Positions 9,329 to 44,574 are shown, counted from the first letter of the stretch. The stretch: DNA of 64,000 nucleotides from Bacillota bacterium (GCA_023460085.1 JAEWRI010000022.1:135487-199486); one strand, 5' to 3'. Notes: generated by a model from the sequence alone, not told the origin. Numbers and translations are program-made.

Positions 9329-9458
9329 ACCTCCGTATTTGTTTTTTTAAACTGATTGAATCCCATCGATGATGATAAAATCATCATGATGCTTTTCCAT
9401 CTGAAAGTCAATCGATATCAGAAACTTGGTTTCCTCCTCCGCAACCCCTTTTAATGCA

Positions 9459-9486
9459 CAAAAAAAGCGCCGCACAAGCGACGCTT
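9459..9486 (-). terminator. Intrinsic terminator ending the ten-gene dynamin/HerA operon
   Basis: Minus strand reads aagcgtcgc-ttgt-gcggcgctt followed by TTTTTTTG, starting 12 nt after the stop at 9498. Confidence 0.6.
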
Positions 9487-9497
9487 CCGATTCGATT

Positions 9498-10010
9498 TTA
9501 CGCAGTCTGAGCCTTCATCCACCGGAAGAAATCCGGCGAAAGCGCCTCATAATAGGGCATGAGCCCTGCCGGCACCGTTTGCGCCATCAGCAGGCTGAAC
9601 TCACGGAGTTGCTTCATCTGCGCTTCGTCCAGCGTTTCCGCGAAAGCAAAGGCGCGAACCGCTTCGCAGGCTTCCTCCATGCGCTTTAAAAGCTCGCCCT
9701 GCTCCCTCGCAGATTTCGCGGAGGGCACGCTGTAATCCACCATCTGTTCGAGCGGATACTGCTTCGTGTCCATAAAGTCCCGAACGGCGCAATATTGAAA
9801 CGAAAATACCCTGCCGTGCTCGGAGGAAATGCTGGCCCACGCGTAAGGACGCACTCTCTTCGTGTTGAACGTATTGGGATAAAAGAATACGCGCTCCGTA
9901 CGCAATCCATTCTCCATGCACGGCACCGGCTGCGATACGGAATATCCGCCGCCTTCCAATGCGCGCACGCCCTTTGTCACTGCCGATTTGATATCCTGTA
10001 AACTTTTCAT
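9498..10010 (-). CDS. Hypothetical 171-aa protein, paralog of 15059..15499 (candidate partner/immunity-like protein of the upstream papain-like protein)
   Basis: ATG 10010 follows a GGGAGAA SD, 18 nt after the upstream stop. By-eye homology to the 147-aa ORF: VRPYAWASISSEHGRVFSF vs YRPCGMVGVPFGGTRILAY, and TVPAGLMPYYEALSPD vs MLPPGTRQFYQSIIPE. Confidence 0.6.
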   Translation of the reverse strand: MKSLQDIKSAVTKGVRALEGGGYSVSQPVPCMENGLRTERVFFYPNTFNTKRVRPYAWASISSEHGRVFSFQYCAVRDFMDTKQYPLEQMVDYSVPSAKSAREQGELLKRMEEACEAVRAFAFAETLDEAQMKQLREFSLLMAQTVPAGLMPYYEALSPDFFRWMKAQTA

Positions 10011-10027
10011 CTCATTCTCCCTTCCCG

Positions 10028-10759
10028 TCAAGCCGCGCGCGTGGCTTCGTCGGTTACGACCACGGAAGCCCCTGATATACTTGCATAGCATGCGTCCATC
10101 TCTTCCACGCTGACATAGCGGCAATTATCGCCATCCGCCCAGCGCCCGCTGTCGCAGATGTAGAACCCCGTTATCTCCCCTGTCTCGGCATCCCGAGCCG
10201 CGCTGGTAACCACAATCTGATGGTTTGCGCTGCCGTCATTGATATAATTTGCGTCGTTCCACAAGTAACCGGCGTTAACGCCCATCGTCACGCATTGACC
10301 ATTCTCCAGCGCCGCGGCGATATCCTCATATGTGCCGCCCGCCTCACCCGGATAATACGCCTGCGCGTCAATCCCGTAATGATCCAGCAGCGCGATAAGG
10401 TACTCGTCGTTGACTCCGCCCCTGGCTTCCGGCGGCAGCATGGGATCGTTATTGCACCAGCCATTGTCGATGGCCGTCTGCACAACATCGTCTTCCGTCG
10501 CGTCGATTCCCGAAAGCTGCAGAATATTGGACACGCTGACCAGCCCGCAGTCGCTCTGATACCCGTATGCGTTGTCACCCTGCTGGTAATCGAGCAGCGG
10601 CGCCACCGAGAACGGATCGCTCGTGGCGACCGATTCCCCGTTTTCATCGATAACCGGCTCGTACTGTTCCAGATCATTGGCCAGCTGCTCCGGGTGCTGT
10701 TCTCCAAACGCTTCTTCGATTCCGTCTCTCACAAGTTCAACCAGGCCCGGGATCTCCAT
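10028..10759 (-). CDS. Papain-fold (C39-like) cysteine peptidase-like protein, no signal peptide
   Basis: YQSDCGLVSVSNILQLSG (Cys71, codon 10547-10549), GSANHQIVV (His180) and FYICDSG (Asp203) give the Q..C / H / D order of C39-like peptidases. Acidic 60-aa N-terminus. AAGGAG SD. Confidence 0.6.
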   Translation of the reverse strand: MEIPGLVELVRDGIEEAFGEQHPEQLANDLEQYEPVIDENGESVATSDPFSVAPLLDYQQGDNAYGYQSDCGLVSVSNILQLSGIDATEDDVVQTAIDNGWCNNDPMLPPEARGGVNDEYLIALLDHYGIDAQAYYPGEAGGTYEDIAAALENGQCVTMGVNAGYLWNDANYINDGSANHQIVVTSAARDAETGEITGFYICDSGRWADGDNCRYVSVEEMDACYASISGASVVVTDEATRAA

Positions 10760-10815
10760 ACCGCTTCACTCCTTATGTTTGATATCGCCATTATAGCGCG
10801 TACTGCCGTCCCATT

Positions 10816-13800
10816 TTAAGACTTCTCCTTTTTTGCCGCCAAAGCCGCATTTTTAGCGGTGTATGCGTACCACCGATAATAGAACGCACGGATTTGTTTA
10901 TTGCCCGCTGCATAATACATCAATACCAGGCTTTCCATCGCGCGCACCGCAGCGGCATCCGCCGCGGCATATGCCGCGATGGCGGCATCCGCCGTTTCAT
11001 TCCAGGCGGCGATATTATCCATCGGAGTTTTGATAATCTCTGCGCCTTTGATCACCAGGTTAACGAGCCTGCACTGCGTACCGAAATCGTTCCACTCCTC
11101 AAGCACCGCGCTTTCACCGTATCGTTTGAGTACTGAAGCCAGCGCCGCGTCCTCCGGACTTCCGCTGGCAGAAAGAATATCCTGGCTGGCTTCCCGTATT
11201 TCCGTTGGAATTATCTCCGCCTTGGTGCGGTTGCAGAGCAGCACCTCCAGCGCTGTACCGCGCGCCCGCCGCAGGGTCTCACCGCTCGCCGCAGGCCGGT
11301 CATATACAAAAGGCGCGTATTTTTCCGGGGGATAATACTCTGCCATACAAAGCACCGGCGAAAGCCAATTTCCCTGATGAAACACCGCGACGCCGGTATC
11401 CAAGCGCGCAATCTCCCCAATCTGCTCCACACTCAAGCCCATCGCCTTGCCTACAGCGCGCCGGTCGTCCTCATCCGGCAGCTTGAACACCACTTTCGTA
11501 TTGGTATTGCGGATTACGGAGCGATCCATAACCGACGGAGACTGATCCGCTATGATAAAACTCTCGCCGTAGGTGCGCATCTCCGCGATGGCGTTGGTAA
11601 GTATCTCCACGGACATACCCTGAAGGTTTGCGCTTTCCATGGACTGCGCGCCGCTCACAGCTTTCAGCAGATGGTGCGCTTCCTCCAGAAGCGTAACATG
11701 GCGCAGACGGCTGTTGATCTCCTCGCAGCGTGTCACGCGATGCTCCTGCAGACGGATGATGAGCATGCCCATGATAAGCGACTTGGTCTCGGATGAGCCC
11801 AGACGGCTGATATCGATGATGGCGTTGCTGTCGAACAGCGCTTCATCCGACACCTCAGTGCGGCAGAACAGCTGTCCGCAGATACCGTTCGCCATCGACT
11901 TCACGCGCGTCACCAAAGCGCCGATATAGTTACCCTGAACCTCCGCCGAAAACTCCGTCTGTTTGAGAACACGTGGCAGCGTATCGGCCAGCGTCGCAAA
12001 CGTCGGGAAGCGCTCCGTCGGGTACCGGCAGATGCTCTCGTCCAGATCCCACCCGCATTCGCGGTACGAAAGCTCTATGGCCTCCTTCAGAAATTCCGGC
12101 ATCGCCGCGTACATCGGCCAGCTCGCGTTGAATACGCCCAGCAGCCGGTCGATATGCTCCAGCACGTGAATGCCCTTCGGGAAGGCAAACGGGTTGATGC
12201 CGAGCAGCGGAGATACCGCCTTGTTTGTGCCATACACGCGCACGTCTTCCCGTCCGCCGAATACGCGCGCATATTCGCCCTTAGCCGGTTCAATTACGAG
12301 AAACTTAATCCCGTTTTCCAGCAGGCGATTGAGCAGTACGTAGCACATATTGGATTTGCCTGATCCGGTGGTGCCCGTGATAAACATGTGTTTGCTGAGT
12401 TCATCGAGCGAAAGCTCCACCTCGAAGTCTTCTGTGTTGCCCATGTGCACGATACGGCCCACTTTGACGCCTGTCTGCACTGCGTCGTTCTTCTTGATGA
12501 TGTCCCTCGCAAACTCTGCGTGGGTATCCACCATCATGCCGGGCAGCGCCTTGCGGGGCCATGCCACGTGCACCGACATCTCCTGCGCGGTGGACAACGT
12601 GGCGGGCGTCACCTGCGGCAGCTCAAACCCGCCGCCGGAGAACGAAAACGCGGGATGCAGCATACGCTTTAAATATTCGGTCAGCGTGGAAACCGTCTGC
12701 GGTTCGTTCCATACGTTGATATATGATATGTTGGCGTCCGGTGAATACCCGGTGAGCAGCGATCGGTATATGCTTGCGCACATGCGGGCTGTGGCATTGT
12801 CCGCCGCGAGGATATACGCCGCACATTGGTACGCGCCGCCGCCCTCGCAGAGCTTGATTCTATCCAGCTGTACATCGATGGCCTTGAGGATATTGCCGAT
12901 AGCCTTGTTTTCGTAATGATACTGCACCGTAGAGCCTTTGGTCTGTGCGCTGCCTTCCGTGGTGCTGTTGGAACGTGCCGTGCTGTCGCTGGTGCCTCTG
13001 GAATCGCTCATTCCCTCCGATTCGCTCGTATCGTCGTGCGATGACGTGGTGCGGGATACGTTCGATTTTCCGCCCGCGAGCGTCTGATACGTTTTGGAAA
13101 CATTGTTGCCAAACGTGCTGACCACCAGCGGCCCAAAATTACCGATGCCCGGCAGAAACGCCGAACCCACCATGCCTGCCAGCGTTGCCGCTGTAATGAG
13201 TACTTCCGCCTTTTTGTTCTTGTCGGTATGCTCCTCTTTGGAGGTGGAATCGCTCGAAGAGGTACCGGTGCTGCGGGAACGGTTTGTGGTGGTGCCCGTA
13301 GTCAGCGACACCGACTGGGTTACCGTATCCCCCAGCGTTTTGGAGAAATTCAGCGTATCCGTCTCCGACAGCGACTGCTGAGATTTGTAGAACGGGGTGA
13401 GCTGGGTGTATAGTGTTTCATAGCCGCTCCGCATGCGCGCCAGCGTCTCATGCGCCACGGAGGACGCCAGCACCACCAATGCGAACGGCTGTCCGCGCAT
13501 GCCGTCCACCAGCTTTTCGATGCCCTGCAGATACACACCCCCCGCGTTATCCGCGCGCACGGAGGCCATACTGGAAACTGAAGCTACTGCCACCTCTCCG
13601 CTGTCAAACAGCGTATCCAGCAGCTTCTCGTTGTGCCTTGTAAATAGCTGCTCCGATTTACAGCCCGGAAAATGACCATCCACCGCGTGGCGCATCGTCT
13701 CAAACGCGTTGGTAAGCACCTGTGTATCCGTGCAGGCTGTGCCCATATACACGTCCGTCTTCACGCCATCGTGATGTACAATGAACACAGCGCTGCAGTC

Positions 13801-14097
13801 CACCGCGGAAACCGCACTGAAAACGCCGGACAGCTTGCTCAGCACATCCTCCCGGGAATCATAATTCAACGTAGAGAAATGAAGCAGGCGCACCCGGTCA
13901 CGAGGCTCCGCTGCAGCCAGCTCCTGCCGGGGCAGCGGTACTATCTGCGCATTCTCCAGTTGAGAAAGATACTGCATACGCACAAAGATATCCGCCATCC
14001 CGAGTGATTCCATCATACGCTGCTGAGATGGCGCAATGCGATTGTTGTTCTCCGTCACAGCCCTGCTCTTATACACATCGATTTCGTTGTCTTGCAT
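10816..14097 (-). CDS. HerA/FtsK-superfamily (DUF87-like) P-loop ATPase with a large novel N-terminal region and a hydrophobic segment
   Basis: Walker A GTTGSGKSN (12349-12375, verified on DNA). It is preceded by a HAS-barrel-like VKVGRIVHMGNTEDFEVELSLDEL and followed by LVIEPAKGEY. Walker B-like VTLLEEAHHLL. Hydrophobic AEVLITAATLAGMVGSAFLPGIGNFGPLVVSTFG (~13108-13209) is flanked by Ser/Thr-rich tracts. ATG 14097 follows a GGGAGGG SD (the ORF-track start 14148 overlaps the upstream gene). Confidence 0.75.
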   Translation of the reverse strand: MQDNEIDVYKSRAVTENNNRIAPSQQRMMESLGMADIFVRMQYLSQLENAQIVPLPRQELAAAEPRDRVRLLHFSTLNYDSREDVLSKLSGVFSAVSAVDCSAVFIVHHDGVKTDVYMGTACTDTQVLTNAFETMRHAVDGHFPGCKSEQLFTRHNEKLLDTLFDSGEVAVASVSSMASVRADNAGGVYLQGIEKLVDGMRGQPFALVVLASSVAHETLARMRSGYETLYTQLTPFYKSQQSLSETDTLNFSKTLGDTVTQSVSLTTGTTTNRSRSTGTSSSDSTSKEEHTDKNKKAEVLITAATLAGMVGSAFLPGIGNFGPLVVSTFGNNVSKTYQTLAGGKSNVSRTTSSHDDTSESEGMSDSRGTSDSTARSNSTTEGSAQTKGSTVQYHYENKAIGNILKAIDVQLDRIKLCEGGGAYQCAAYILAADNATARMCASIYRSLLTGYSPDANISYINVWNEPQTVSTLTEYLKRMLHPAFSFSGGGFELPQVTPATLSTAQEMSVHVAWPRKALPGMMVDTHAEFARDIIKKNDAVQTGVKVGRIVHMGNTEDFEVELSLDELSKHMFITGTTGSGKSNMCYVLLNRLLENGIKFLVIEPAKGEYARVFGGREDVRVYGTNKAVSPLLGINPFAFPKGIHVLEHIDRLLGVFNASWPMYAAMPEFLKEAIELSYRECGWDLDESICRYPTERFPTFATLADTLPRVLKQTEFSAEVQGNYIGALVTRVKSMANGICGQLFCRTEVSDEALFDSNAIIDISRLGSSETKSLIMGMLIIRLQEHRVTRCEEINSRLRHVTLLEEAHHLLKAVSGAQSMESANLQGMSVEILTNAIAEMRTYGESFIIADQSPSVMDRSVIRNTNTKVVFKLPDEDDRRAVGKAMGLSVEQIGEIARLDTGVAVFHQGNWLSPVLCMAEYYPPEKYAPFVYDRPAASGETLRRARGTALEVLLCNRTKAEIIPTEIREASQDILSASGSPEDAALASVLKRYGESAVLEEWNDFGTQCRLVNLVIKGAEIIKTPMDNIAAWNETADAAIAAYAAADAAAVRAMESLVLMYYAAGNKQIRAFYYRWYAYTAKNAALAAKKEKS

Positions 14098-14108
14098 GTT
14101 GCCCTCCC

Positions 14109-15062
14109 TTAAAGCAGGCTTTCCTGCAAATCCCAGATTTGATCGCATATCTGAAAGATATACGAGTCTTCATACCGGCTCTTGAGCTGGCCTGCGGCTT
14201 TCGCCATCTCTTCTACAACCCCGACTGCCTGTGACGGAAGATATACTTCGCTGACGTAACGGTCAAACGCCTGCAAAATGCCTTCGGCATCTGCCGCTAT
14301 CGCACAATCGGCGCAGAGCCTGAGCGGAATATCCAGCTGTTCCATGAGCGCCGAACACTTTGTCCGGTTCGCGTCCGTCCCGTCACCCACCAGGCACAAT
14401 AATATGAATAAATCCCCCGCGTCCCGCTCCGTTTCCATGGCCGACTGCAAATCGTCCTGCAAATCGCGTGGCAGCCTGGATGCATCCAATACAACAACGG
14501 ATATTCCCCGCCGATTCAAGGCTGCGCCTCGTTCCTTCAGAGATACGTCAAGGTCCTCAGGCATTCCAGCCATATCATGCAACGCTGTTGGGAATACGCT
14601 CATCCTGTCGCGGAGTTTTTTCAGTCCCTCGTACCCGTCGCCATCCAGGCGCTGTACAACCGTATCGATAAAATCATCCAGCACAGCACGGATATTCTTC
14701 ACCATTCCCCTGGGAGATTCCGGCAGGACATGACTTACCTGTGCGGAGGTCTCCATGCCGCGGCGCGCCAGCGATTCCTGCTGCGCCGCCATCACCTCGC
14801 GCAGCGTCTGAAAATCCCTTTCCCGCCCATGAAATGTAATGACAAAGGTATCGTCGTTCAGTTCGCGCACAAGCTCCGGAAGTATCCCCTGCCATTTCTG
14901 AAAACCCCGGCTGTAAGGATAAAGCCACTCATAGAAGTTTTTTCTGACAACGAAAGCGGTTAATCGGTTTTCGTTGCTCTCTACATTCATGCCGTCGATG
15001 ACGAGGCGCGTCAGCTGTCCTTCTCTCCGGAAGGGGCTTACGGTGATCTCTATCCGCTTCAT
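14109..15062 (-). CDS. Hypothetical 317-aa protein (no recognisable family)
   Basis: A long ORF in the operon frame with host-like codon usage. The start shares ATGA with the upstream stop. No motif recognised. Confidence 0.6.
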   Translation of the reverse strand: MKRIEITVSPFRREGQLTRLVIDGMNVESNENRLTAFVVRKNFYEWLYPYSRGFQKWQGILPELVRELNDDTFVITFHGRERDFQTLREVMAAQQESLARRGMETSAQVSHVLPESPRGMVKNIRAVLDDFIDTVVQRLDGDGYEGLKKLRDRMSVFPTALHDMAGMPEDLDVSLKERGAALNRRGISVVVLDASRLPRDLQDDLQSAMETERDAGDLFILLCLVGDGTDANRTKCSALMEQLDIPLRLCADCAIAADAEGILQAFDRYVSEVYLPSQAVGVVEEMAKAAGQLKSRYEDSYIFQICDQIWDLQESLL

Positions 15063-15499
15063 TTCAGTCCCGCCTTTTCAGGGATTATACTCTGGTAGAA
15101 TTGCCGGGTTCCCGGGGGCAGCATGTCCAGCAGCTGCAGCTGCAGCAATTCGCATTGCGCCGCATCCGCCGAATCCCAGGCCGCCAGACGGGAATAATAG
15201 TTGTCCATTCGCTGCGCATCTCCGGAATACAGCGGCGTATCGCTCCCTGTTTCGCTCTGCAGCCACTGGGCAGCGCTGTATGCCAGAATCCGTGTGCCGC
15301 CAAACGGTACGCCGACCATGCCGCAGGGACGATATCCGCCGTCCGGCAGCGGTTCGAAGAAAGGCAGCAGCAGCGCACGGTCTCCGCTCTTTATTACAGG
15401 GATAGGATATCCCATCACGGCAGCGGAAGGAAGCAGCAGGCATATCATGCGGGAATACCGGAGATCGTGAAGCCAGTTAAAAAACTCTTCGGTTTTCAC
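15059..15499 (-). CDS. Hypothetical 147-aa protein, paralog of 9498..10010
   Basis: GTG 15499 overlaps the upstream stop (GTGA) and follows a GGAGGT SD at 6-nt spacing. Homology to the 171-aa ORF is described there. Confidence 0.55.
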   Translation of the reverse strand: MKTEEFFNWLHDLRYSRMICLLLPSAAVMGYPIPVIKSGDRALLLPFFEPLPDGGYRPCGMVGVPFGGTRILAYSAAQWLQSETGSDTPLYSGDAQRMDNYYSRLAAWDSADAAQCELLQLQLLDMLPPGTRQFYQSIIPEKAGLK

Positions 15500-16116
15500 T
15501 TGTACACCTCCAGTATCCATCCGTTCTGCGAGATCATCGCAACCGCGTCCTTATTGAGCGATATCCATTGCCCGCCCTCCATGGAATGATCCGATACCAC
15601 AACCCCTTCTCTGTCGGCGGCAACCACTTGGACCGTGTGCAGCCCGGGGACCTCATAACCGGAATCATCCGGCTGCGCCGTCACCTGCCGCCAGAGCTGG
15701 TCGGGTACATAAGCCATCACCGATCCGTCGGCTCGCAGGCAGGCGGCGATGTTGGCCTCCGAAAAACGGGAAACCTGCACGTAGCATTCCTTTTCCAGCA
15801 GCTCCACAGCGTCCAGCATACCCGGCGCGGTATTCAAGCCTTCTGCCCACGCAAAGCCCGTCTGCTCAGTCATCACATCGCGCAGTGTCATGGATGCTGC
15901 CTCCGCCTGGCTTTCGGTAAACCGCCATGCCTCCGGCTGAATATCTGCCACGTCCTTCGGATCAAACCCTTCCATGGTCACGCGCAACACTTCCGGTTCT
16001 CCGGTTTCATTAACTCTCAGCACCTCAGAAGCAAACCGCGCTTTTTCTGAAACCTCATTTTGAATTCCGTCACGCGGCTCGAAACCCTTGCCCGGAATTT
16101 CATCAAACGGCGGCAC
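15496..16116 (-). CDS. Papain/C39-like paralog lacking the aligned nucleophile Cys (putative pseudo-peptidase)
   Basis: By eye it aligns with 10028..10759: ANIAACLRADGSVMAYVPDQLW vs EDIAAALENGQCVTMGVNAGYLW, and GLHTVQVV/VVVSDHS vs ANHQIVV/FYICDSG. Phe sits at the position aligned to Cys71, and there is no Cys in the first 112 residues. GTG 16116 follows a GGAGG SD at 8-nt spacing (ORF-track start 16125). Confidence 0.5.
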   Translation of the reverse strand: MPPFDEIPGKGFEPRDGIQNEVSEKARFASEVLRVNETGEPEVLRVTMEGFDPKDVADIQPEAWRFTESQAEAASMTLRDVMTEQTGFAWAEGLNTAPGMLDAVELLEKECYVQVSRFSEANIAACLRADGSVMAYVPDQLWRQVTAQPDDSGYEVPGLHTVQVVAADREGVVVSDHSMEGGQWISLNKDAVAMISQNGWILEVYK

Positions 16117-16825
16117 GGTCGTCACCTCCCGTCAGCATTCGCAACAGCACGGGATAGCCCGCCTTGCTTGCGAAAAGCGTTTTTCCGGATTTCAGTGTGA
16201 TCGCTTTGGTGCTTTTATCCACATGGGCGATATGCGACAGATTGACCAGATAGCTCTTATGGCAGCGGCAGAACACGCCCGATGGCAAGGTATGCTGCAC
16301 GTCGTCCAGCTTTGCGGTAAACGTCTGCGTCTGATTGTCGTTCATATGCACATGCACGATCCGGTAGTCGCTCTCAAAGTAGTCGATGTCCGCATAAGGC
16401 AGACGCAGTATCTCCGCCTTGGATTCATAGCTGAAGCAGGATTGCCCGCCTTCCATCCAAGATAAGGCTTTTCTCAGCGCATCGATGAAATTCTCGGCGC
16501 CGGCATCCCGCAGCACATAAGCAATGGGCAGCGTATAGAATGCCTGCAGCACCGTATCGTCCGATCCGTCGATATACACTATCGTGCAGTCCCGGTTATT
16601 CTCCCTCACCTTTTCTCCGATTGATAGCCCCTCGCCGTCCGCCGGGAGCACGAGCAGGTCGAGATTGTATTCCTCCTGCTCCAGCGCTTCCTCCAGTAGC
16701 CCTCTGCGCAGATAAGCCGTTATGATCGCGCGGTGATCCTGCTGAAACACCGTATCCGCGATGAGCCGCTGCAGGCTCTTGGCGGCTTCCAGCTCACGCA
16801 GGTATATGCAGATCCGTATCCTCAT
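16103..16825 (-). CDS. LytTR-family DNA-binding regulator with degenerate receiver-like N-terminal domain
   Basis: C-terminal LytTR motif (FCRCHKSYLVNLSHIAHVD). The N-terminal ~120 aa is receiver-like, but the expected phospho-acceptor region reads LDLLVLPADGEGLS with no Asp in the LLVLP stretch. No histidine kinase gene is nearby. Confidence 0.8.
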   Translation of the reverse strand: MRIRICIYLRELEAAKSLQRLIADTVFQQDHRAIITAYLRRGLLEEALEQEEYNLDLLVLPADGEGLSIGEKVRENNRDCTIVYIDGSDDTVLQAFYTLPIAYVLRDAGAENFIDALRKALSWMEGGQSCFSYESKAEILRLPYADIDYFESDYRIVHVHMNDNQTQTFTAKLDDVQHTLPSGVFCRCHKSYLVNLSHIAHVDKSTKAITLKSGKTLFASKAGYPVLLRMLTGGDDRAAV

Positions 16826-16859
16826 AATCCCTGTTTCACTTTCCTTTTGCTCTGACGAT

Positions 16860-18878
16860 TTACGCGCGCGCCCCGGACAGTATAATTTGTACCTGCTGCG
16901 GAACGTCTGATATGTTCGCTGCAGCCTTCTCCAGGCTGGCTTTCCTGCGCGTTACTTCCTCTTCACCCTTGCGTTTTTCCTCCAGAATGCTCTGGATATC
17001 CGTCTCAATCTGTTTGATATCGGCAAACGCGCACTCACCCACGGTGTCCCTGAGGTCCTTTATCTTGCCGTTGATCTGGTTGAAGATTTTATCGTTGAGC
17101 TCCATGGTGCGCGCTGAATCGTTCAGCATCGTACGGTATTCCTTCGTCACCTTGTTGGTAATCGAATTCTGCAATTTGGAGAGCGTCCATCCGATTCCCA
17201 CCACAGTGGACAGCAGCGTACCCACCACAATGGCGCCAAGGCCGATGGGTGTAAAGCATGCCGCGATGCCCAGCGCGATTCCCGTTGCCAGCTGAAGCCC
17301 CAATGTGCGGAACATTGCTTCCTTGCCCAGCACACCGCCCACCAGCGCGGTCAGTATATCCCCCGTGAAAAGCGCGTAAACCACAGAGGCAACCTTTGTG
17401 GCATCGGAGGACAGTTTCTCCGTTTCCGCGCTGTGCCGGAAATTCAGGTCCACCTTGATATCCGTGATCACGCTGGAGAGCTCCGCCGCACGCGATTCCA
17501 GTTTTTTCGCCACGCCCTGTATCCCTTCGTTCAATTTTGGCAGCAGCGTTTCCTTCGTCCACTGTATCGAGAAGGTATTGAATTTATTCTGCAGATAGCT
17601 GCTGTATTCATCAGAAATCGCTTTCGCCGTGCGCTTCAAATGCATCAGTTCCGTCGTCACAGAGCATACGTACTCGCTTTGCCACTGATTCAGATTCTTG
17701 GCGGCTTCCGTGGTCAGCGTGCTGATGACAGGCTTAACGCCCTCCAGCGACTTGTCCAGCTCAATGTTAAATTCGCTGGCGAACAGCTCCGCCTTCTTTT
17801 TGGCCAGCTCCATCTTTTCGCTGACGCTGCTGATGCGCGCCTCAAACTCGGCCAGCGGGAGATCCACCGTATTCAAGTGCTCGCGTATGGTCTGCGCGCC
17901 TTCCCTGCTGATAATCTCCATCTGCGCGGCAATGGCGCTCAGTTTCTCATCGCCCTTGCACTTTACCAGAAATTCTTCCAGGTATTTCTCCATCTTCAGG
18001 TATCCGGACTCCAGCAGGAGTTCCTTGTTTTTGTCGCGCTTCGCCTTGATTGCCTGCAGCGAGGATACGAAGAATACGCCGTTTCCGCCCAGCTTCTCCG
18101 TATATTCAGGCTGCATCAGCCGAGTGCTCTTCTTCAGGTTGCGGTTGATGGTATCGATGGCTTCTTCCACATCCGCCGCCGAAGGCGATTCATCCTTGAT
18201 GTTATCGAAGCGGGTAACGACAAATATCGGCGTATTGTACCCACGCAGGTTGATATCGGCGATAGTATCCACATCCAGCTTCGTGTAGGGCTGCACTCCG
18301 TTCAGGCAATATATGATGGCATCCGCGGAGGGCAGGTATTCCAGCGTGATGGTATCGTGGCTGTTGGGGTCGTTGAGTCCCGGGGAATCCACTACCTCTA
18401 CGCCGTCCTTCAGCATTTCCAGCGGCCAGTATACCTCCATCTTTCTGAAAGGGGACTCAATGACGTTGCCTTCCTTGTAGTTCGCCGCGCCCTGCTTGTG
18501 ATCGATGAGGCAATAGTCGCGTATCCTGTCGATGGGCACGTCAAAAGGTTCGTCGCCACCTTCCCACTTGCCCGGCACGGGGTACACCACCACACGCTTG
18601 TCCTGCGCGTATTTGATCTCCGTGATCAGCGCGGTGGCAGGCATCACCTTGGTGGGGAGTATGGGTTCGCCTAAAAACGCATTAATCATAGAGGATTTTC
18701 CGGAGCTGAACTGCCCCATGATCAGTATGCGGAAAGTCTTGTCGGCGATCTTTTCCTTGCTGGTCATGATCATCTGGATCAGATCATCCCGTGTGCCCAC
18801 CGTATCGATAATTTGTTTTTGCATATCCAGCTGCCGGTCGATGGCTTCCGCAGCATTCTGGTAAGACTTGATATTCAT
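16860..18878 (-). CDS. Bacterial dynamin-like protein (DLP-3)
   Basis: G1 GQFSSGKSS (18693-18716), G3 DSPG and G4 TRFD. Long helical stalk. Gly/Ala-rich hydrophobic hairpin near the C-terminus (LGLQLATGIALGIAACFTPIGLGAIVVGTLLSTVVGIGW). Confidence 0.85.
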   Translation of the reverse strand: MNIKSYQNAAEAIDRQLDMQKQIIDTVGTRDDLIQMIMTSKEKIADKTFRILIMGQFSSGKSSMINAFLGEPILPTKVMPATALITEIKYAQDKRVVVYPVPGKWEGGDEPFDVPIDRIRDYCLIDHKQGAANYKEGNVIESPFRKMEVYWPLEMLKDGVEVVDSPGLNDPNSHDTITLEYLPSADAIIYCLNGVQPYTKLDVDTIADINLRGYNTPIFVVTRFDNIKDESPSAADVEEAIDTINRNLKKSTRLMQPEYTEKLGGNGVFFVSSLQAIKAKRDKNKELLLESGYLKMEKYLEEFLVKCKGDEKLSAIAAQMEIISREGAQTIREHLNTVDLPLAEFEARISSVSEKMELAKKKAELFASEFNIELDKSLEGVKPVISTLTTEAAKNLNQWQSEYVCSVTTELMHLKRTAKAISDEYSSYLQNKFNTFSIQWTKETLLPKLNEGIQGVAKKLESRAAELSSVITDIKVDLNFRHSAETEKLSSDATKVASVVYALFTGDILTALVGGVLGKEAMFRTLGLQLATGIALGIAACFTPIGLGAIVVGTLLSTVVGIGWTLSKLQNSITNKVTKEYRTMLNDSARTMELNDKIFNQINGKIKDLRDTVGECAFADIKQIETDIQSILEEKRKGEEEVTRRKASLEKAAANISDVPQQVQIILSGARA

Positions 18879-18918
18879 CTTTTGCTCCTCACCGTATATT
18901 TAAATTTCGATTAAACCC

Positions 18919-20478
18919 TTATTCCTCCGCCATGAACTCGTTCAGTATCGCGTCGCACTCCATTGCCAGCACGGAATAGCGTTTAAATGCTTCTCCCATT
19001 TTTCTTTCCTCTTCGCCCTCACCGCTGCCCTTCTGGACGCTTGCGGCCAGCTGCGCATCCTTAACTGCCAGCAGCAGCGAAGCATAGATATAGTCCACAT
19101 TCTTTGAGAACGCTTCGAAGTTACTGCCCACGCATTTGACAACATACCGGCGGACTTCCGCTTCCAGCTCCTTCATTCTGTCCTTGTTGTTGCCATGCTC
19201 GACAATGGACCAAAAACCGGTGGCGACGGTAGCGCCTCCCGCCAGCATAGTTGCCGAGAAAATCGCGATGCCGTTGATGATGAAAACCGGCGCGAAAAGT
19301 ATGCTGGCTGCCAGCGCGGCAGAGGAGAACACCAACCCGGTGAACGCCATACGCTTCATCTTCTCGGGGTCGCTGCTCTTTGGCTCCGGCGCTCCGGGGC
19401 TGCCGAACGCGGATGCTTCGTAACCCGGCAATGTGTTCAGTTTCACACCAAATGCCTGCTCGACGTCCGATATCAGCGTTTTACGGTCTTCAACGATCCG
19501 TTCGCTGAGGGCACGGTTGACGCTGCCTGAAATCTTCTGCAGCTCCACCGCCATGTCGTGTTCCAGCTGCCGGTTCCACCAGTCCTTTTTCGAAGACGCC
19601 AGCGACATCTTCATTACCAGACTGTCACCTATCTCCGCTACGGCCTTCTCCCGGATCCGGTTGATCTCAGCCAGCGCTTCGTTATTTTTTTTCTTGACGC
19701 GCAGCTCGATTTCCTGCCATTGCGTTTCATTGATTTGCGCGCGCACCTTTCCGCTCTCACGGGTTTTAGCACAATCATTCAGCGCCTGCTTTGCCTGCTG
19801 CTGCAAGGCGGAAATACGGTTCTTTACCGCCGAGGCGAACCCCATGCAAAGCAGCATCTCTTTAACATCTTCCACGCTTTCGTGCGCACAGAGCATGCTG
19901 AGCAGTGCCTTGCCCATGCCCTTGTCGTCCTTGCGAATCAGCGCCAGTTCGTCGGTACCGAAGAGCGCGCTCAGCTGCGTCTTTACGTAATCCTCTGCTT
20001 CCGCCTTATCTTCGTCATTCAGCAGCTCCATTTTATTGAGGGCAATGGTGCAAGGGATACCATAGGTAATGCAAGTGCGTATAGCGGCGACATCTCTCGC
20101 GGAAAGCGGAGCGGCGGCGGACAGCAGGAACAATGCCGCGTCTACCCCCCAAAGCACACAGTCGGCGTCTCCCGGCTGTATGTTTTCATACTCCTCAATG
20201 GCGATCTCCGCGCAGGTAATCTCTGTGCCGGGAACTTCCGCTGAAAGCTTGGAATCATGCGTGGACGATACCATTGATACCGGCATTGTCGCGCTGCCCA
20301 AAATCATATTTGCCACTGTGCTTTTTCCGGAGTTGGTATCGCCCAGCACCGCAAATACTTTGCCATGCTTGCACCGGACTTCGTCGCGTTTTCCGTTGTA
20401 TCGACTCGCAATATCCCCGCTGCCAATCTCCGCGGCAAGCGACGTCAGTTTGCTGAACATATCCTCAGGTATTAACAT
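18919..20478 (-). CDS. Dynamin-like GTPase with divergent G3 motif (DLP-2)
   Basis: G1 GDTNSGKST (20320-20343) and an NKME G4-like motif. The expected DxxG position reads VDAAL. C-terminal hydrophobic hairpin (LVFSSAALAASILFAPVFIINGIAIFSATMLAGGATVATGFW). The start overlaps the DLP-1 stop (ATGTTAA). Confidence 0.7.
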   Translation of the reverse strand: MLIPEDMFSKLTSLAAEIGSGDIASRYNGKRDEVRCKHGKVFAVLGDTNSGKSTVANMILGSATMPVSMVSSTHDSKLSAEVPGTEITCAEIAIEEYENIQPGDADCVLWGVDAALFLLSAAAPLSARDVAAIRTCITYGIPCTIALNKMELLNDEDKAEAEDYVKTQLSALFGTDELALIRKDDKGMGKALLSMLCAHESVEDVKEMLLCMGFASAVKNRISALQQQAKQALNDCAKTRESGKVRAQINETQWQEIELRVKKKNNEALAEINRIREKAVAEIGDSLVMKMSLASSKKDWWNRQLEHDMAVELQKISGSVNRALSERIVEDRKTLISDVEQAFGVKLNTLPGYEASAFGSPGAPEPKSSDPEKMKRMAFTGLVFSSAALAASILFAPVFIINGIAIFSATMLAGGATVATGFWSIVEHGNNKDRMKELEAEVRRYVVKCVGSNFEAFSKNVDYIYASLLLAVKDAQLAASVQKGSGEGEEERKMGEAFKRYSVLAMECDAILNEFMAEE

Positions 20479-22343
20479 GCCAATTCTCTCCTTACTGAAA
20501 ACAGTTTTAAATTCTGTATCTGCTCTTCTATTTCCTTCGTATAACGGCCGTTATCCGCTATTTCGCGGTTCAGCCGCATCTTCTTTTCTTCATACATCTT
20601 CAGCGCGTCATTGTACAGCTGCGAATAGATAGCCATATAGTGTCTTGACATCTCTTCCAGTCGCGTGATGCTCTTATCAATGCATTGCACCGTCATAGGT
20701 ATACACTCGCCGGATATTCTATCCGAGATCGTGGGCAGCTGCAAACGTACTTGCTGTACAAAATCTGCCCGCGCCTTTTTCATAAACAGTTTGTCCTTGC
20801 CGAGGTACCCGACGATTCCCCCCACAACCGCGCCTATCGGCCCTCCCAATATCAGGCCGATGGCCGCTGCGCCCCCGCTTGTCAGCACGGTATTCTGCGT
20901 TTCTACTTTTGCGTAGCTTTCACGCACCTGCGCCAGCGAGCTCCCAATCTTCTCTTGGAGGGGTTGAGTCATCGCCGAGGACGCCGCATTCTGAAGCAGC
21001 GCCGCGTTGCCAATGCGTCCATAGCAGGTTTCCAGTTCCCGCTGCATATGATCCCCTGTCCAGTTTACCAGACCTTGCGCAGAGTCTGCCACCTGCTGGC
21101 TGTATCGATAGTACGCGGGCGTCTGATTGGCAATATCGCCTGCAAGACCGTCCGTCCGCGAGGCGTATACTTTAAAATCGGCATGGCTGCTGAACGCGGA
21201 GACACGGTATTCCACCGCCTGCAGCATATAGCTCTCCATCTCTCTCCGTGTCACTCGTTCATTTTCCTTATATACGCCGCGCATTTCCCACAGCCGGTTG
21301 CTCTCCTGTACCTTAATGTCGGCCAGCTTTTTGGCCAGCTGCGGCGGCGCGTTTTCTTCCAGCACCTTAAGGCTGGACTGAAGCGCCTGCGTCTGCTGCG
21401 CAACGCCATCCTTCATCACACCCAGCATCTGTCTCAGCAGCTCTGCCATACGGCAGCTCAGTATGAACTCCCGCTGCTCCCGCAGATGCGTAAAAAGTGC
21501 CTCCCGCAGTGCGTTCAACCTGCGCGCCCACACTTCGTCCTTGCCCGCAAGATACGCCGAGCAGGAAACCAGCAGCGGATCCCGAATTCCCAGCTTTTCC
21601 TGTATATTTTCTCGAACGTACTGCTCCAGTTCTTCCCGCTCGTCCTCCTCCACCCTGTCCATCATAGTGAGCACAAACACCGCATGGTTCATAAACCTTT
21701 CGGCGTTTTCCTTCAGAAACAGTTCAAAGCTGTATGTATAAGCCTGCGTAGCGGGAAAAAGGATGATTACAGAGTCCGCCGCATGTTCAAGCACCTGCTT
21801 GGTGCGCGTTACATGCAGCTCGGAATTCTCCTGACCGGGATTGACTCCGGGGGTATCGATAATGCACAGATTGCCCAGCGCGCCGCTGTCCGGCAGGAGC
21901 ACATCCACCCGCGCGGTGCGGTGCGCTACGGATTCACGAGTAGTTACTGTATTGAGGTTTTCCTTAAAATCACTGCCAAGTGTGATATTGCACACTTCGC
22001 AAAAGGACTGCGCCTCCTGCGCATCATTCAAGTGATACCGCTTTCCGTCGTTGAGTTCAATATGCAGTTCGGCGGTTTCATAAGGCCCGCCTTGAATGTA
22101 CGTGGGAATTGCCGTGGTTGCCATGATTCCGGTTTTCAGACAGTCATATCCGCAGAGCGCGTTGATCAGCGTGCTTTTTCCCGAGCTGAAGTCGCCAATA
22201 ACCGCCAGCTTCAGCGTGGTATCCGCATGCTTTTCCGCGATATCATTTCTTTGCTTTTTCAGTTCTGCCAGCGTGTCTGCCCGCCATGGAAACTCTGTAA
22301 AAAGGCGGCCGGCATACTGTATACTGCGCTCGATTTGATTCAT
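20472..22343 (-). CDS. Bacterial dynamin-like protein (DLP-1)
   Basis: G1 GDFSSGKST (22173-22196, verified on DNA), G3 DTPG and a G4-like TMMD. Helical stalk. Gly-rich hydrophobic segment GGAAAIGLILGGPIGAVVGGIVGYLG. Confidence 0.85.
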   Translation of the reverse strand: MNQIERSIQYAGRLFTEFPWRADTLAELKKQRNDIAEKHADTTLKLAVIGDFSSGKSTLINALCGYDCLKTGIMATTAIPTYIQGGPYETAELHIELNDGKRYHLNDAQEAQSFCEVCNITLGSDFKENLNTVTTRESVAHRTARVDVLLPDSGALGNLCIIDTPGVNPGQENSELHVTRTKQVLEHAADSVIILFPATQAYTYSFELFLKENAERFMNHAVFVLTMMDRVEEDEREELEQYVRENIQEKLGIRDPLLVSCSAYLAGKDEVWARRLNALREALFTHLREQREFILSCRMAELLRQMLGVMKDGVAQQTQALQSSLKVLEENAPPQLAKKLADIKVQESNRLWEMRGVYKENERVTRREMESYMLQAVEYRVSAFSSHADFKVYASRTDGLAGDIANQTPAYYRYSQQVADSAQGLVNWTGDHMQRELETCYGRIGNAALLQNAASSAMTQPLQEKIGSSLAQVRESYAKVETQNTVLTSGGAAAIGLILGGPIGAVVGGIVGYLGKDKLFMKKARADFVQQVRLQLPTISDRISGECIPMTVQCIDKSITRLEEMSRHYMAIYSQLYNDALKMYEEKKMRLNREIADNGRYTKEIEEQIQNLKLFSVRRELAC

Positions 22344-22401
22344 ATGAGTCTGGTTGCAACCTCTTGGGCGTCTGTTTTCTGCTGCGCTGATAATCTACAT
22401 T

Positions 22402-22430
22402 ATCATATAAAAGTTCTTTAACAATGTAAA
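22402..22430 (-). promoter_or_regulatory. Candidate sigma-70-type promoter of the dynamin/HerA operon
   Basis: Minus strand reads TTTACA (22430-22425), 17 nt, TATGAT (22407-22402), about 60 nt upstream of ATG 22343, inside a 448-bp AT-rich non-coding region. Confidence 0.4.
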
Positions 22431-22730
22431 TATTAAACCCAGCATTTAATCAGAAAATTCCATGTAAACTGCAAACTCTTCCCTCTTGTTTTCTTATACC
22501 CTCAACCGTATCGCCCCCTTGTTTTGTGATGATTGTACCGTACTTTTGGCTCCATTCTAATTGCTTCGCATAATTGACTGTCAAAACCGCCTTTTTATCC
22601 GCCCATTTTACAGAAGGCCACGCTTAGGAAACCACATCTGATTTCCCTTTCGCGCCTGCAGTCGCATCTTTCCGTTCCGCGCATACAATAGTCTCAGTCA
22701 TGTTTTTTTTCAAATTGTGCTCTGGCCGTA

Positions 22731-22759
22731 TTGACAATTACATATGAGCGGTCTATCAT
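22731..22759 (+). promoter_or_regulatory. Sigma-70-type promoter of the ArsR/HMA/ATPase operon
   Basis: TTGACA (22731-22736), 17 nt, TATCAT (22754-22759). About 33 nt upstream of ATG 22792. Confidence 0.6.
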
Positions 22760-22779
22760 ATGATTATATCTTCATATGA
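22756..22779 (+). promoter_or_regulatory. Putative ArsR/SmtB operator (two palindromic TCATATGA boxes)
   Basis: TCATATGA at 22756-22763 and 22772-22779, overlapping the -10 element and the transcription start region. Confidence 0.5.
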
Positions 22780-22791
22780 AAGGACGTTCAT

Positions 22792-23136
22792 ATGTCTGGA
22801 GAAACAAGACATGATCATACCGCAATGGTGAAGGCGGTGTGCGCAGAAATGCCGCCCGAAGAGCTTCTGTGTGACCTGGGCGATCTGTTCAAGGTTTTTG
22901 GGGACACAACGCGGGTGCGTATACTGTATTCATTGTTCGAATCGGAGATGTGCGTCTGCGCCATTGCCGAGGTGTTGGGAATGACGCAGTCCGCCATCTC
23001 CCACCAGCTGAAGGTGCTGAAGGATGCCCGCCTCGTCGATAACCGCCGCGAAGGCAAGACCATCATGTATTTTCTGGCCGACGACCACGTGCGCTCCATC
23101 ATCGGTCAGGGCTACGAGCATTTAAGGGAGGTTTGA
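22792..23136 (+). CDS. ArsR/SmtB-family metal-responsive repressor
   Basis: LFKVFGDTTRVRILYSL...CVCAIAEVLGMTQSAISHQLKVLKDARLV (HTH_5 with a CVC metal site). Confidence 0.9.
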   Translation: MSGETRHDHTAMVKAVCAEMPPEELLCDLGDLFKVFGDTTRVRILYSLFESEMCVCAIAEVLGMTQSAISHQLKVLKDARLVDNRREGKTIMYFLADDHVRSIIGQGYEHLREV

Positions 23137-28352: not shown

Positions 28353-28823
28353 CGGACATCCTCCTTTACCTCTCTGTTTCCAGCGTATTCTGGAATAATG
28401 TCCGCTATGATTTTTTCTGACATTCATACCCCGTTTCGTATGGTTATTTTCAGTACCCATTTTAATCACACTTCGATATAATGCTGCAGCAATGCTGTGC
28501 CTGCCATGTAATCCGCTCTCATCAATTTCCCGAGTTTATATTCATTATCAGCAAAGTATGAATAAGGTTATTGGATTCTACACGAAATTACGGTATACTG
28601 TTGTTGCTGCTTCAAGCGGGCAGCGCGGCATCTGTGGATGCCGTAAAAAAACGTGTGCGTCTACTCCACAACATAGGCGTACATTGTATAAAGAAGGAGG
28701 TTGTGATTTTCCGCTATTGCTTGCGGTGTCGCAGTGTGGAGACCTGCGATGAATGCTTCCGGCATCTTTTTCAGCCGGAAGTGAGAATCGGGAGAGGAGT
28801 CGAACGATTCAAAGCAAAGAGGT

Positions 28824-43815: not shown

Positions 43816-44574
43816 TTAACCCTCCCATTTATAACCCATAGTGGTTATAGTTTGCTTTCCTGCTTTGCCATCAACCTTAATCTTCTTAGCTTTCTGAAAA
43901 GCTAAAACTCCTGCTTCTGTCTTACTGCCAAAAATACCATCTTCAGCACCGCAACTATACCCAAGCTTATTTAGGGTTTTTTGAAGCAATCTAATATCTT
44001 CACCTTCCATCTGTGGTGAAAGCTTCTTCAATACTCGATTAAAGATAACTGCGGCAGTAGCTTCAATTTCATCTTTAAAGTAAGTTGGTCTGCCGTAAGT
44101 GTTCCAGCCGCCTTGACTTAAAGGACGTTTTACAACACCATAGGCACTACCCCTAGCTTCAATTACATTTAAAGCATCGTCAACCACATAACCAATATGA
44201 TAGGCTTTACCCTTCTTAGTGCCGGTCTTATAGGTTTTAAATACCCAATCACCTTTCTTTAGTTCTGCCTTAGAAAGAATTGTGCATTTACCTTTAAGGC
44301 CGTTTGCGTTCATATCAACCTTGATAATACCTAGCTTCTGCAAGCTGTAGATACCCAAGCCGCTACAATCAAAGGCTTTTAACATCTCACCAAAACCAGC
44401 TTCAACTTGTTTCTTCCAATAAGCTACAGCACTGTTGCCGGTTGAAGTGGTCTTAGCACATTTCTTAATCCAAGCTTCTGTAATAGTTGGTTTTGTTTGG
44501 CCTTGTGCACCCCAAACATAGATAGAATGGTTTTTTACTTCCAGTTCTAATAGTTCAATAAATTCTTTTAACAT
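43816..44574 (-). CDS. Endolysin: NlpC/P60-type cysteine peptidase + PG_binding_1 domain
   Basis: AFDCSGLGIYSL catalytic Cys motif and a His in GKAYHIGYVV. C-terminal LQKTLNKLGYSCGAEDGIFGSKTEAGVLAFQKA peptidoglycan-binding repeat. Confidence 0.85.
   Translation of the reverse strand: MLKEFIELLELEVKNHSIYVWGAQGQTKPTITEAWIKKCAKTTSTGNSAVAYWKKQVEAGFGEMLKAFDCSGLGIYSLQKLGIIKVDMNANGLKGKCTILSKAELKKGDWVFKTYKTGTKKGKAYHIGYVVDDALNVIEARGSAYGVVKRPLSQGGWNTYGRPTYFKDEIEATAAVIFNRVLKKLSPQMEGEDIRLLQKTLNKLGYSCGAEDGIFGSKTEAGVLAFQKAKKIKVDGKAGKQTITTMGYKWEG

Follow-up and report, generated by a model that had tools for sequence, protein, structure and literature searches.

A ten-gene operon of a Bacillota bacterium belongs to a conserved system of dynamin-like proteins, a HerA/FtsK-type ATPase and polymorphic toxins that may act in toxin delivery

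We analyzed a stretch of 64,000 nucleotides (nt) from a Bacillota bacterium (GCA_023460085.1, JAEWRI010000022.1:135487-199486; hereafter the window), in which ten open reading frames (ORFs) on the minus strand form a tightly packed cluster that spans positions 9498-22343. With high confidence, the cluster belongs to an extensive and conserved gene system, as yet without a name, that comprises two or three dynamin-like genes, a HerA/FtsK-type ATPase with a single P-loop domain, and a leaderless polymorphic toxin together with an immunity gene. We propose that it encodes an undescribed ATPase-driven, dynamin-assisted toxin delivery system, the cargo of which would, in the window, be a C39-like cysteine peptidase; we put the probability of this reading at roughly 0.55. 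The encoded proteins, P1 to P10 in operon order, are as follows (lengths in amino acids, aa; the Pfam gathering cutoff for Dynamin_N is 27 bits):

20472-22343, minus strand: P1, dynamin-like GTPase 1, 623 aa (Pfam Dynamin_N 4e-21, 76.2 bits; PADLOC LeoA 54 bits)
18919-20478, minus strand: P2, divergent P-loop GTPase, 519 aa (Dynamin_N 23.8 bits over 31 residues, below the cutoff)
16860-18878, minus strand: P3, dynamin-like GTPase 3, 672 aa (Dynamin_N 2.7e-26, 93 bits; PADLOC LeoA 77 bits)
16103-16825, minus strand: P4, orphan LytTR transcription regulator, 240 aa (LytTR 2.6e-19, 69.7 bits; cutoff 22.6)
15496-16116, minus strand: P5, soluble subtype-specific protein, 206 aa (tiny family, no library match)
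15059-15499, minus strand: P6, partner of P5, 146 aa (conserved with P5 in loci L006-L008)
14109-15062, minus strand: P7, 317 aa (its family model matches the N terminus of the DLP-b dynamin; always directly upstream of the ATPase)
10816-14097, minus strand: P8, membrane-anchored HerA/FtsK-superfamily ATPase, 1093 aa (DUF87 5.7e-14, 53.2 bits; cutoff 23.2)
10028-10759, minus strand: P9, predicted papain-fold (C39-like) cysteine peptidase, 243 aa (structure model, Foldseek matches and slot after the ATPase)
9498-10010, minus strand: P10, presumed immunity protein for P9, 170 aa (slot position and co-occurrence with P9)

An initial annotation of the window, made from its sequence, had set beforehand that the grouping would fail if the dynamin and ATPase genes were unlinked in other genomes. 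Full-length relatives of P8 (~940-1230 aa) number more than 120 in Clostridia and Bacilli, and a pattern scan over one genome per species recovered at least 588 stretches encoding an ATPase relative, which span Bacillota, Fusobacteriota, Brachyspira, Synergistota, Colwellia, Wolinella and others. For comparison we used 86 loci (designated by L numbers), made up of the 80 best-scoring ATPase relatives and six others and thus not a random sample, and searched their ORFs with iterated hidden Markov models (HMMs) built from the window proteins. Upstream DNA of 5 kb or more was available for 63 loci, and 57 of these have dynamin-like genes on the same strand and within 9 kb, across Bacillota, Fusobacteria, Brachyspira, Synergistota and Proteobacteria; 45 of the linked loci have two dynamin-like genes, 8 have one and 4 have three. 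The cluster thereby passes the test set in the initial annotation. The usual order is a WYL regulator (~28 loci), a ~440-aa dynamin, a ~760-aa dynamin, a small glycine-zipper protein, the ATPase, a gene for a protein of 170-330 aa and a gene for one of 100-160 aa. The small protein, U1, which has a C-terminal glycine-zipper tail, is present in 60 loci and absent among the ten proteins of the window.

The same order is seen in database gene calls and RefSeq for Anoxybacillus flavithermus, a Lachnospiraceae relative, Murimonas intestini, the Lactococcus cremoris plasmid pF27B and an IncI plasmid of the enterotoxigenic Escherichia coli (ETEC) strain TW10590, where the genes carry generic labels such as 'dynamin family protein', 'ATP-binding protein' and 'HNH endonuclease'. 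Both plasmids are conjugative, reside in hosts that are genetically tractable, and harbor the canonical form (dynamin, dynamin, one or more small proteins, ATPase, HNH/WHH nuclease, small gene): in pF27B (L090, 2690-13195) the downstream gene is an unannotated hypothetical, and in pTW10590_133 (L091, 2746-11145) it encodes a SMI1/KNR4 protein. Within E. coli the system occurs in 1 of 5,426 complete genomes. A phage origin was considered and rejected, the ATPase being essentially absent from 50,697 phage records.

Loci L006, L007 and L008 share the form present in the window, with three dynamin-like genes, LytTR, P5, P6 and P7; L009, L024 and L087 share it in part. The window represents a rarer subtype in which the P7 domain is split off, a LytTR regulator stands in place of the usual WYL regulator, and an extra P5-P6 pair is present. 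In Murimonas (L087), the gene for a P9 homologue overlaps the stop codon of a 1123-aa ATPase gene, which itself follows three dynamin-like genes and a P7-like gene. Directly after the toxin cassette of this Murimonas intestini locus lies a gene for a 955-aa NACHT/protein-kinase protein (11947-14814).

The two genes that follow the ATPase have the composition of a toxin slot and an immunity slot. (Genes in the fetched loci were called as simple longest ORFs, and some toxin starts are over-extended.) Pfam assigned 41 of the 79 genes in the toxin slot to WHH/Colicin-DNase, 11 to LHH, 6 to Endonuclea_NS_2, 2 to GH-E, 1 to HNH and 1 to a putative metallopeptidase, with further motif classes represented by restriction endonuclease (REase)-like proteins, 'HHxPAD' proteins and the papain family; a recognized polymorphic-toxin domain was present in ~60 of the 79. 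The second genes likewise belong to a recognized immunity family in ~50 of 73 cases, including 34 SUKH/SMI1_KNR4 proteins, 13 DUF6985 proteins and single PoNi, ankyrin and SUFU proteins. The toxin and immunity families in these two slots are those known from polymorphic toxin systems (Zhang et al. 2012, PMC3482391).

Different toxin domains are found, moreover, on a common N-terminal region: the WHH toxin of L003 and the HHxPAD toxin of L004 share 140 aa at 53% identity (E = 9e-40), and the WHH toxin of L002 and the REase-like toxin of L010 match with E = 4e-9. In Brachyspira, ATPases that are 95-97% identical in their cores are followed by either a REase-like or an EndoNS2 toxin and by unrelated immunity genes, the ATPase tails being 51-69% identical. 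The system has the architecture of a polymorphic toxin system, in which variable toxin domains are carried on a common N-terminal region. Neither P9 nor the 79 related toxins contain a trafficking domain or secretion signal that Pfam recognizes (Sec, LXG, PAAR, two-partner secretion (TPS), MuF and the like), and the mode of trafficking would therefore be new. Apparent second toxin pairs in L014 and L063 proved to be unrelated genes (a vWA-like protein; IS200/TnpB-like genes). We also note that the toxin leaders of the Brachyspira loci L033, L034 and L077 contain short tandem peptide repeats, 'DLTPNFGNKNE..GGNNR' and 'DKGLGPNAEYDRRSSE', the copy number of which varies between species.

The assignment of P8 to the HerA/FtsK-type membrane ATPases made in the initial annotation is borne out by a DUF87 match above cutoff and by intact Walker motifs, which do not vary among 19 homologues: Walker A (G575-S582, with G575, G578, G580, K581 and S582) and Walker B (E805/E806). 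The protein consists of an N-domain of ~250 aa, a Ser/Thr-rich linker, a hydrophobic hairpin (residues ~297-330), a second Ser/Thr-rich linker, the DUF87 P-loop domain and a hypervariable C-terminal tail. PADLOC HerA/mad8 profiles match it at 60-66 bits and HerA entries of the PDB at E = 1e-8 to 1e-6. Its single P-loop domain reaches 20.5 bits with FtsK_SpoIIIE, below the cutoff of 24, and matches the TrwB/TraD/VirB4-type and CedD families weakly, far below their cutoffs; among NCBIfam models searched with the ten window proteins, ser_rich_anae_1 scored 97 bits against a cutoff of 650, and the CedD and HerA equivalogs lay far under cutoff.

Over 74 loci, mean pairwise identity is 58% in the ATPase core, 35% in the N-domain and 17% in the tail. 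Identity between tails covaries with similarity between the first 70 residues of the corresponding toxins when core identity is controlled for (partial Mantel r = 0.14, a value reached in 0 of 1000 permutations), and in the same test the N-domain shows no covariation with the toxin N terminus (r = 0.001). The variable part of the ATPase and the variable cargo change together.

In the window, the toxin slot is occupied by P9. Its AlphaFold2 (AF2) model, a confident papain fold with a predicted local distance difference test score (pLDDT) of 88, has as Foldseek neighbors 6mpz (1.2e-5), PCAT1, ComA, staphopain and the toxin domain CdiA-CT of Citrobacter rodentium (8ssm, 5e-4), and residues Q60, C71, H180 and D203 are invariant across 50 homologues. 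The first 32 residues form a disordered leader in the model, and the N terminus of P9 lacks the hydrophobic stretch that a Sec signal requires, hydrophobic hairpins being seen in P1, P2, P3 and P8. The Pfam Peptidase_C39_2 score is 17.6 bits, below the cutoff of 24, and all P9 homologues are small stand-alone proteins. The structure model and the position of the gene suggest that P9 is the toxin cargo of the operon, a predicted papain-fold cysteine peptidase. P10 accompanies P9 in L007 (twice), L008 and L009, L007 containing two tandem P9-P10 pairs; from its position and this co-occurrence we presume that P10 is the immunity protein for P9. A P9-like papain-fold protein also occurs in L089 (10001-17126), where the genes for the 325-aa protein and a 184-aa partner precede those for an HSP70-WD40 fusion (770 aa) and a shorter DUF87 ATPase (895 aa), with no dynamins; this locus may represent a different ATPase-linked context for the P9 peptidase family.

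At the other end of the operon, the initial annotation had counted three dynamins related to LeoABC and Eleos. P1 (76 bits) and P3 (93 bits) are indeed dynamin-like by Dynamin_N, and P2 is matched over its P-loop only, below cutoff. P1 has a C-terminal glycine-zipper hydrophobic hairpin (residues ~485-515), P2 a hydrophobic hairpin at residues ~376-422 and a PADLOC LeoA score of 18 bits, and P3 two hydrophobic segments within residues 495-567. Equivalents of P2, of 507-528 aa, stand between two dynamins in L006-L009 and L087, and the protein appears to be a degenerate dynamin-like protein, alone in missing the Dynamin_N gathering score. The nearest solved structure to P3 is the bacterial dynamin-like protein (BDLP) of Nostoc (2j68, E = 8.5e-29 over residues 36-479), followed among PDB matches by a Campylobacter dynamin-like protein, IniA and mitofusin; LeoA (4aur) matches in the P-loop only (E = 2e-4). 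P3 is of the BDLP/mitofusin type: its similarity to a solved bacterial dynamin extends beyond the P-loop, and hydrophobic segments of the membrane-binding paddle kind are present. The proposed affiliation with LeoABC/Eleos was overstated.

P7, in turn, had been described as an orphan, a description that its own HMM contradicts. In a word-index search P7 had five close relatives only. An HMM of the P7 family aligns with the N-terminal 80-190 residues of the ~760-aa dynamins of related loci (E = 1e-13 to 1e-7), and iterated HMMs of P1, P2, P3 and P7 converge into one dynamin profile. P7 is a stand-alone form of the N-terminal domain that, in most related loci, is fused to the ~760-aa dynamin beside the ATPase.

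Between the dynamin genes and P7 lie the genes for P4, P5 and P6. P4 has a LytTR domain and no detectable receiver domain (no Response_reg match at E <= 0.1; alignments to AgrA and BtsR are partial and far below cutoff), and no histidine kinase is encoded in the cluster or its flanks, in keeping with the orphan regulator recognized initially; it is kept at the same position in L006-L008. P5 has no sequence match in Pfam, NCBIfam, PADLOC or the PDB, and P5, P6, P7 and P10 together gave zero matches in the Pfam, PADLOC, NCBIfam and PHROGs libraries. The P5 family comprises 16 proteins with E <= 0.001 among 1.84 billion representatives, of which 13 are true homologues of ~200 aa and 3 are longer proteins that match over short stretches only. 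Of the two papain-like modules claimed for the operon, P9 stands, on its model and its C39 Foldseek matches, and P5 does not: BLAST against P9 gave E = 0.11 and three hhalign comparisons gave E = 0.13, 0.07 and 0.36 (the last with the 13 remote homologues), the candidate papain His column is mostly Arg in homologues, and there is no conserved Cys/His pair. The further claim that the small partners are paralogous receives a hint from hhalign, which aligns the P6 and P10 families over 117 columns with E = 0.0014 and a probability of 18%; P6 and P10 are possibly distant paralogues.

The ten ORFs are tightly coupled. When genes were called independently on a public metagenome contig of identical sequence (ENA ERZ28599896, scaffold_28, 200 kb), the same genes, starts and lengths resulted; the coordinates first assigned to the cluster were exact, and its junctions, from -14 to +56 nt, are as first described (negative values denote overlaps):

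P1/P2 junction: -7 nt, the P1 stop lying within the P2 start (ATGTTAA)
P2/P3 junction: +40 nt
P3/P4 junction: +34 nt
P4/P5 junction: -14 nt
P5/P6 junction: -4 nt (GTGA)
P6/P7 junction: -4 nt (ATGA)
P7/P8 junction: +11 nt, TAA-GGGAGGGCAAC-ATG, with the Shine-Dalgarno sequence GGGAGGG
P8/P9 junction: +56 nt
P9/P10 junction: +17 nt

We also recovered the single terminator after the last gene and the AT-rich leader with a candidate promoter that had been noted before, along with a second promoter-like site:

9455-9488, minus strand: intrinsic terminator at the operon end, an 11-bp GC-rich stem followed by U7 (folding free energy -17.4 kcal/mol, z = -2.5)
22344-22791, minus strand: upstream leader, 448 bp, AT-rich (40% GC)
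22430-22402, minus strand: promoter-like TTTACA-17-TATGAT in the leader, a consensus-level match
10790-10819, minus strand: promoter-like TTAAAA-18-TATAAT in the 56-nt gap between P8 and P9, weak in the consensus scan

The terminator after P10 is unlisted by a simple consensus scan and is supported by its folding energy. The same scan found no convincing internal terminator (13 terminator-like sites in total, against a shuffle expectation of 13.4), and signals that would split the cluster show no excess over shuffled sequence. The site at 10790-10819 might be a separate promoter for the P9-P10 pair, a weak call because the 16 promoter-like sites in total exceed the shuffle mean (10.3, standard deviation 3.2) by less than two standard deviations. 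At 22481-22530, ~50 nt upstream of the promoter-like site in the leader, is a 17-nt direct repeat, CCCTCTTGTTTTCTTAT / CCCCCTTGTTTTGTGAT, with a spacing of 33 nt, which is a candidate operator for P4, two-copy repeats often being due to chance. CATATG-rich 24-nt inverted repeats within the same 448-bp intergenic region (22740-22795), just upstream of the start of an ArsR-like gene (ORF 22815-23102), are probably the operator of the adjoining metal-resistance genes, outside the dynamin operon.

The coupled operon, the conserved gene order, the polymorphic cargo, the cargo-linked tail and the hairpin anchors lead us to regard the ATPase as a cargo-selecting motor and the dynamins as providers of a passage. 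In this model, the ATPase would assemble into a ring on the cytoplasmic side of the membrane, anchored by its predicted re-entrant hydrophobic hairpin, and its hypervariable C-terminal tail would bind the short N-terminal leader of the toxin. ATP hydrolysis would then remove the immunity protein and push the toxin outward, from the cell. No fixed channel is encoded in the operon; the BDLP/mitofusin-type dynamins, with hairpin anchors of their own, could supply or reseal the membrane passage through local remodeling, vesicle formation or fusion. Once released, P9 would act as a protease against neighbors that lack P10, and P10 would shield the producer and its kin, with P4 turning the operon on. 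In its broadest form, to which we give somewhat less than an even chance, the proposal is that of a new protein-toxin delivery machine (a 'dynamin-HerA secretion system') in hundreds of monoderm and diderm species, in which the variable tail selects toxins and the dynamins, instead of a fixed channel, open, bud or fuse membranes, moving folded toxins out of the cell and possibly straight into a neighbor.

Type IV and type VII secretion systems use FtsK/HerA-type ATPases to power the export of their substrates (Zhang et al. 2012, PMC3482391). In Mycobacterium tuberculosis, IniA and IniC, which are dynamin-like, have been implicated in vesicle release (PMC11832169), and papain-like protease toxins serve interbacterial antagonism (PMC12136450). 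The Bacillus dynamin-like protein DynA has been implicated in membrane sealing and phage tolerance.

Several observations weigh against toxin delivery. Nothing in the sequences shows export itself. No channel-forming or outer-membrane component is encoded, and yet E. coli, Brachyspira, Fusobacterium and Colwellia, all of them diderms, are among the carriers. With 170-330 aa, the toxins are small, and they have no domains for receptor binding or translocation. DNases make up about three quarters of the cargoes, a composition that would equally fit an intracellular HerA-nuclease defense machine. WYL regulators, which are typical of defense loci, precede the ~28 related operons mentioned above, and defense genes are found among 130 flanking ORFs of 43 loci (AbiLi three times, PtuA twice, DRT twice, GajB-like three times), with Shedu-like and methylase genes flanking L003. 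The covariation between tail and leader is weak, and joint transfer of neighboring DNA, instead of physical recognition, could account for it. P10 matches no recognized immunity family in the library scans, the export model leaves the roles of P5 and P6 unexplained, and the tandem toxin-immunity arrays that are common at interbacterial loci are represented by L007 only. The loci compared were, in addition, chosen largely by ATPase score.

Many of these points would be accommodated by an intracellular anti-phage system of the abortive-infection or membrane-surveillance type, the first of two hypotheses offered in the initial annotation. The toxin would here stay inside the cell; the dynamins and the ATPase would sense or act on membrane damage or incoming DNA, and the ATPase would free the nuclease or protease from its inhibitor or feed DNA to the nuclease, such that the infected cell is killed or the phage DNA destroyed. 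Indeed, the two-gene dynamin operon Eleos ('Dynamins') guards Bacillus subtilis against jumbo phages, and HerA ATPases, whose PADLOC profiles match P8, work with effectors in known defense systems. The WYL regulators, the flanking genes (AbiLi, Septu PtuA, DRT reverse transcriptase, GajB-like and Shedu-like), the copy on a conjugative dairy Lactococcus plasmid that adjoins an Abi gene, and the small, mostly DNase effectors without entry domains in diderm hosts without an outer-membrane component all fit this explanation, although the counts of defense genes in the flanks stand without a matched control. However, the effectors (WHH, LHH, GH-E and EndoNS2) and the inhibitors (SUKH, PoNi, ankyrin and SUFU) belong to the families of secreted polymorphic toxin systems, and both the toxin-then-immunity order and the swapping of C-terminal domains between systems that are 95-97% identical are hallmarks of interbacterial antagonism. 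The PADLOC LeoA/LeoBC matches are weak (24-29 bits in canonical loci, 54-77 bits in the window), and the LytTR class of the window regulator fits bacteriocin or quorum control, LytTR regulators being best known for controlling bacteriocins and quorum-regulated genes. We therefore consider anti-phage defense unlikely, if clearly the nearest competitor, and rank it below the second hypothesis of the initial annotation, an export route for a papain-like toxin with cognate immunity, which the recognized toxin and immunity families at the related loci support better.

Two further explanations are much less probable. The ATPase might move DNA in a plasmid or mobile-element maintenance or DNA-handling machine, with the nuclease-immunity pair as an addiction module, in line with the weak TrwB/TraD/VirB4-type and CedD matches of the P-loop domain, the copies on conjugative plasmids, and the recombinases, insertion sequence (IS) elements or SSB genes that flank some loci. 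Those matches to conjugation families are far below their cutoffs, however, the protease cargo of the window and L006 is unsuited to a role on DNA, the immunity families differ from classical antitoxins, and the window copy sits among housekeeping genes, relaxase, integrase and replication genes being absent from its surroundings; we regard this explanation as improbable. A chance juxtaposition of an Eleos-like dynamin operon, an independent HerA-type ATPase and a pair or two resembling toxin-antitoxin modules is effectively excluded because the linkage is conserved. The types of module do occur alone elsewhere, as in two-gene dynamin systems, L089 has a P9-like gene beside a different DUF87 ATPase and no dynamins, and a promoter-like site separates the ATPase gene from that for P9. 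Against this, the order dynamin(s)-ATPase-toxin-immunity holds in 57 of 63 loci from several phyla and on plasmids, the genes overlap or lie within 56 nt of one another ahead of a single terminator, P7 is a piece of the neighboring dynamin family, and the ATPase tail covaries with the toxin.

A dynamin-assisted toxin delivery system would resemble several known systems in part. As in the type VIIb secretion system (T7SSb), where EssC is found with LXG toxins, an ATPase is combined with polymorphic toxins and immunity genes. The covariation of the tail and the Brachyspira swaps show that the 3' end of the ATPase gene is variable and moves together with the effectors downstream; in Staphylococcus aureus, essC variants have a variable 3' end that is linked to the downstream effector set. 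Unlike EssC, which has three or four P-loop domains, P8 has one, with an FtsK_SpoIIIE score under cutoff, and the ten window proteins include no family match to FHA, WXG100, LXG or EssA/EssB/EsaA. Dynamin-like GTPases, absent from T7SSb, are integral here, and the system is also found in diderm phyla. With Eleos and LeoABC the system shares two or three adjacent dynamin-like genes in one operon and weak LeoA/LeoBC profile matches; leoABC of ETEC has been connected with the release of toxin and vesicles, and Eleos with defense against phages. Eleos, however, is a self-sufficient two-gene system, whereas here a HerA-type ATPase and a toxin-immunity pair nearly always follow (57/63). The profile scores are 18-77 bits (PADLOC without system cutoffs; canonical relatives score 24-29 bits against LeoA), and the closest solved structure is that of Nostoc BDLP.

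Sir2-HerA, DUF4297-HerA and archaeal HerA-NurA similarly couple a HerA-type ATPase genetically to a nuclease or other effector. P8, a distant relative of HerA, differs in being about twice as long and membrane-anchored, with its own N-domain and Ser/Thr-rich linkers, and the effectors here are polymorphic-toxin domains with dedicated immunity genes; Pfam and PADLOC detected no Sir2, DUF4297 or NurA in the ten window proteins, and the HerA profile matches were partial, at 60 bits or less. P9 has the fold and the Gln/Cys/His/Asp set of C39 peptidases and of CdiA-CT (8ssm) and is followed by a small cognate gene, but it is a separate protein, joined to neither an ABC transporter nor a carrier of the CdiA, Rhs or LXG type, and falls below the Peptidase_C39_2 cutoff. 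IniA/IniC and DynA are, like the proteins described here, bacterial dynamins, which remodel or reseal the cytoplasmic membrane, and IniA is among the PDB matches of P3; those proteins are, however, unlinked to a HerA-type ATPase or to toxin-immunity cassettes.

The initial annotation had found no named system to match the gene set, and we reach the same result. PADLOC, PHROGs and NCBIfam gave no system-level assignment of the ten proteins beyond weak LeoA/LeoBC and HerA/mad8 matches. Searches of open-access papers and bioRxiv returned no description linking dynamins with DUF87/HerA or with polymorphic toxins, a description elsewhere being possible, and a defense screen of the lactococcal plasmidome does not mention the system. 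Polymorphic toxin systems as such are known; what would be new, and is apparently undescribed, is the trafficking machinery.

The function of bacterial dynamins has been an open question for about two decades, and the present system ties dynamins to a motor ATPase and to cargo that can be scored as killing or immunity, which makes it accessible to simple genetics. Should export be true, bacterial dynamins would have their first defined function linked to a cargo, and polymorphic toxins a new delivery route, one that is common in gut Clostridia and present on Lactococcus starter plasmids and an ETEC plasmid, with bearing on microbiome competition, dairy strain stability and pathogen ecology. 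Should defense be true, Eleos-like dynamins can cooperate with a caged toxin and a HerA motor, a result of relevance to the mechanism of Eleos. As annotation is now generic, the family merits a name and profile models.

The surroundings of the operon in the window are ordinary: genes for a thiamine pyrophosphate (TPP) enzyme and an oxidoreductase as well as transketolase genes lie downstream, and ArsR/HMA genes and a P-type ATPase gene lie upstream. Farther along, at 43000-64000, GC content falls from ~55% to ~35% and siphovirus-type prophage genes appear on the minus strand:

57654-58886, minus strand: terminase
56309-57643, minus strand: SPP1-type portal
48540-49394, minus strand: Dit
46653-48536, minus strand: Gp37-like tail protein
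45720-46637, minus strand: tail-repeat protein
43816-44574, minus strand: NlpC/P60 and peptidoglycan (PG)-binding lysin

The 20-point gap in GC content between prophage and host suggests either very recent acquisition or a chimeric assembly. Finally, a malK-I cis-regulatory RNA (Rfam RF03069) is found on the plus strand at 28646-28829, upstream of a sugar-transport region, with a score of 113.5 bits against a gathering threshold of 60.3.

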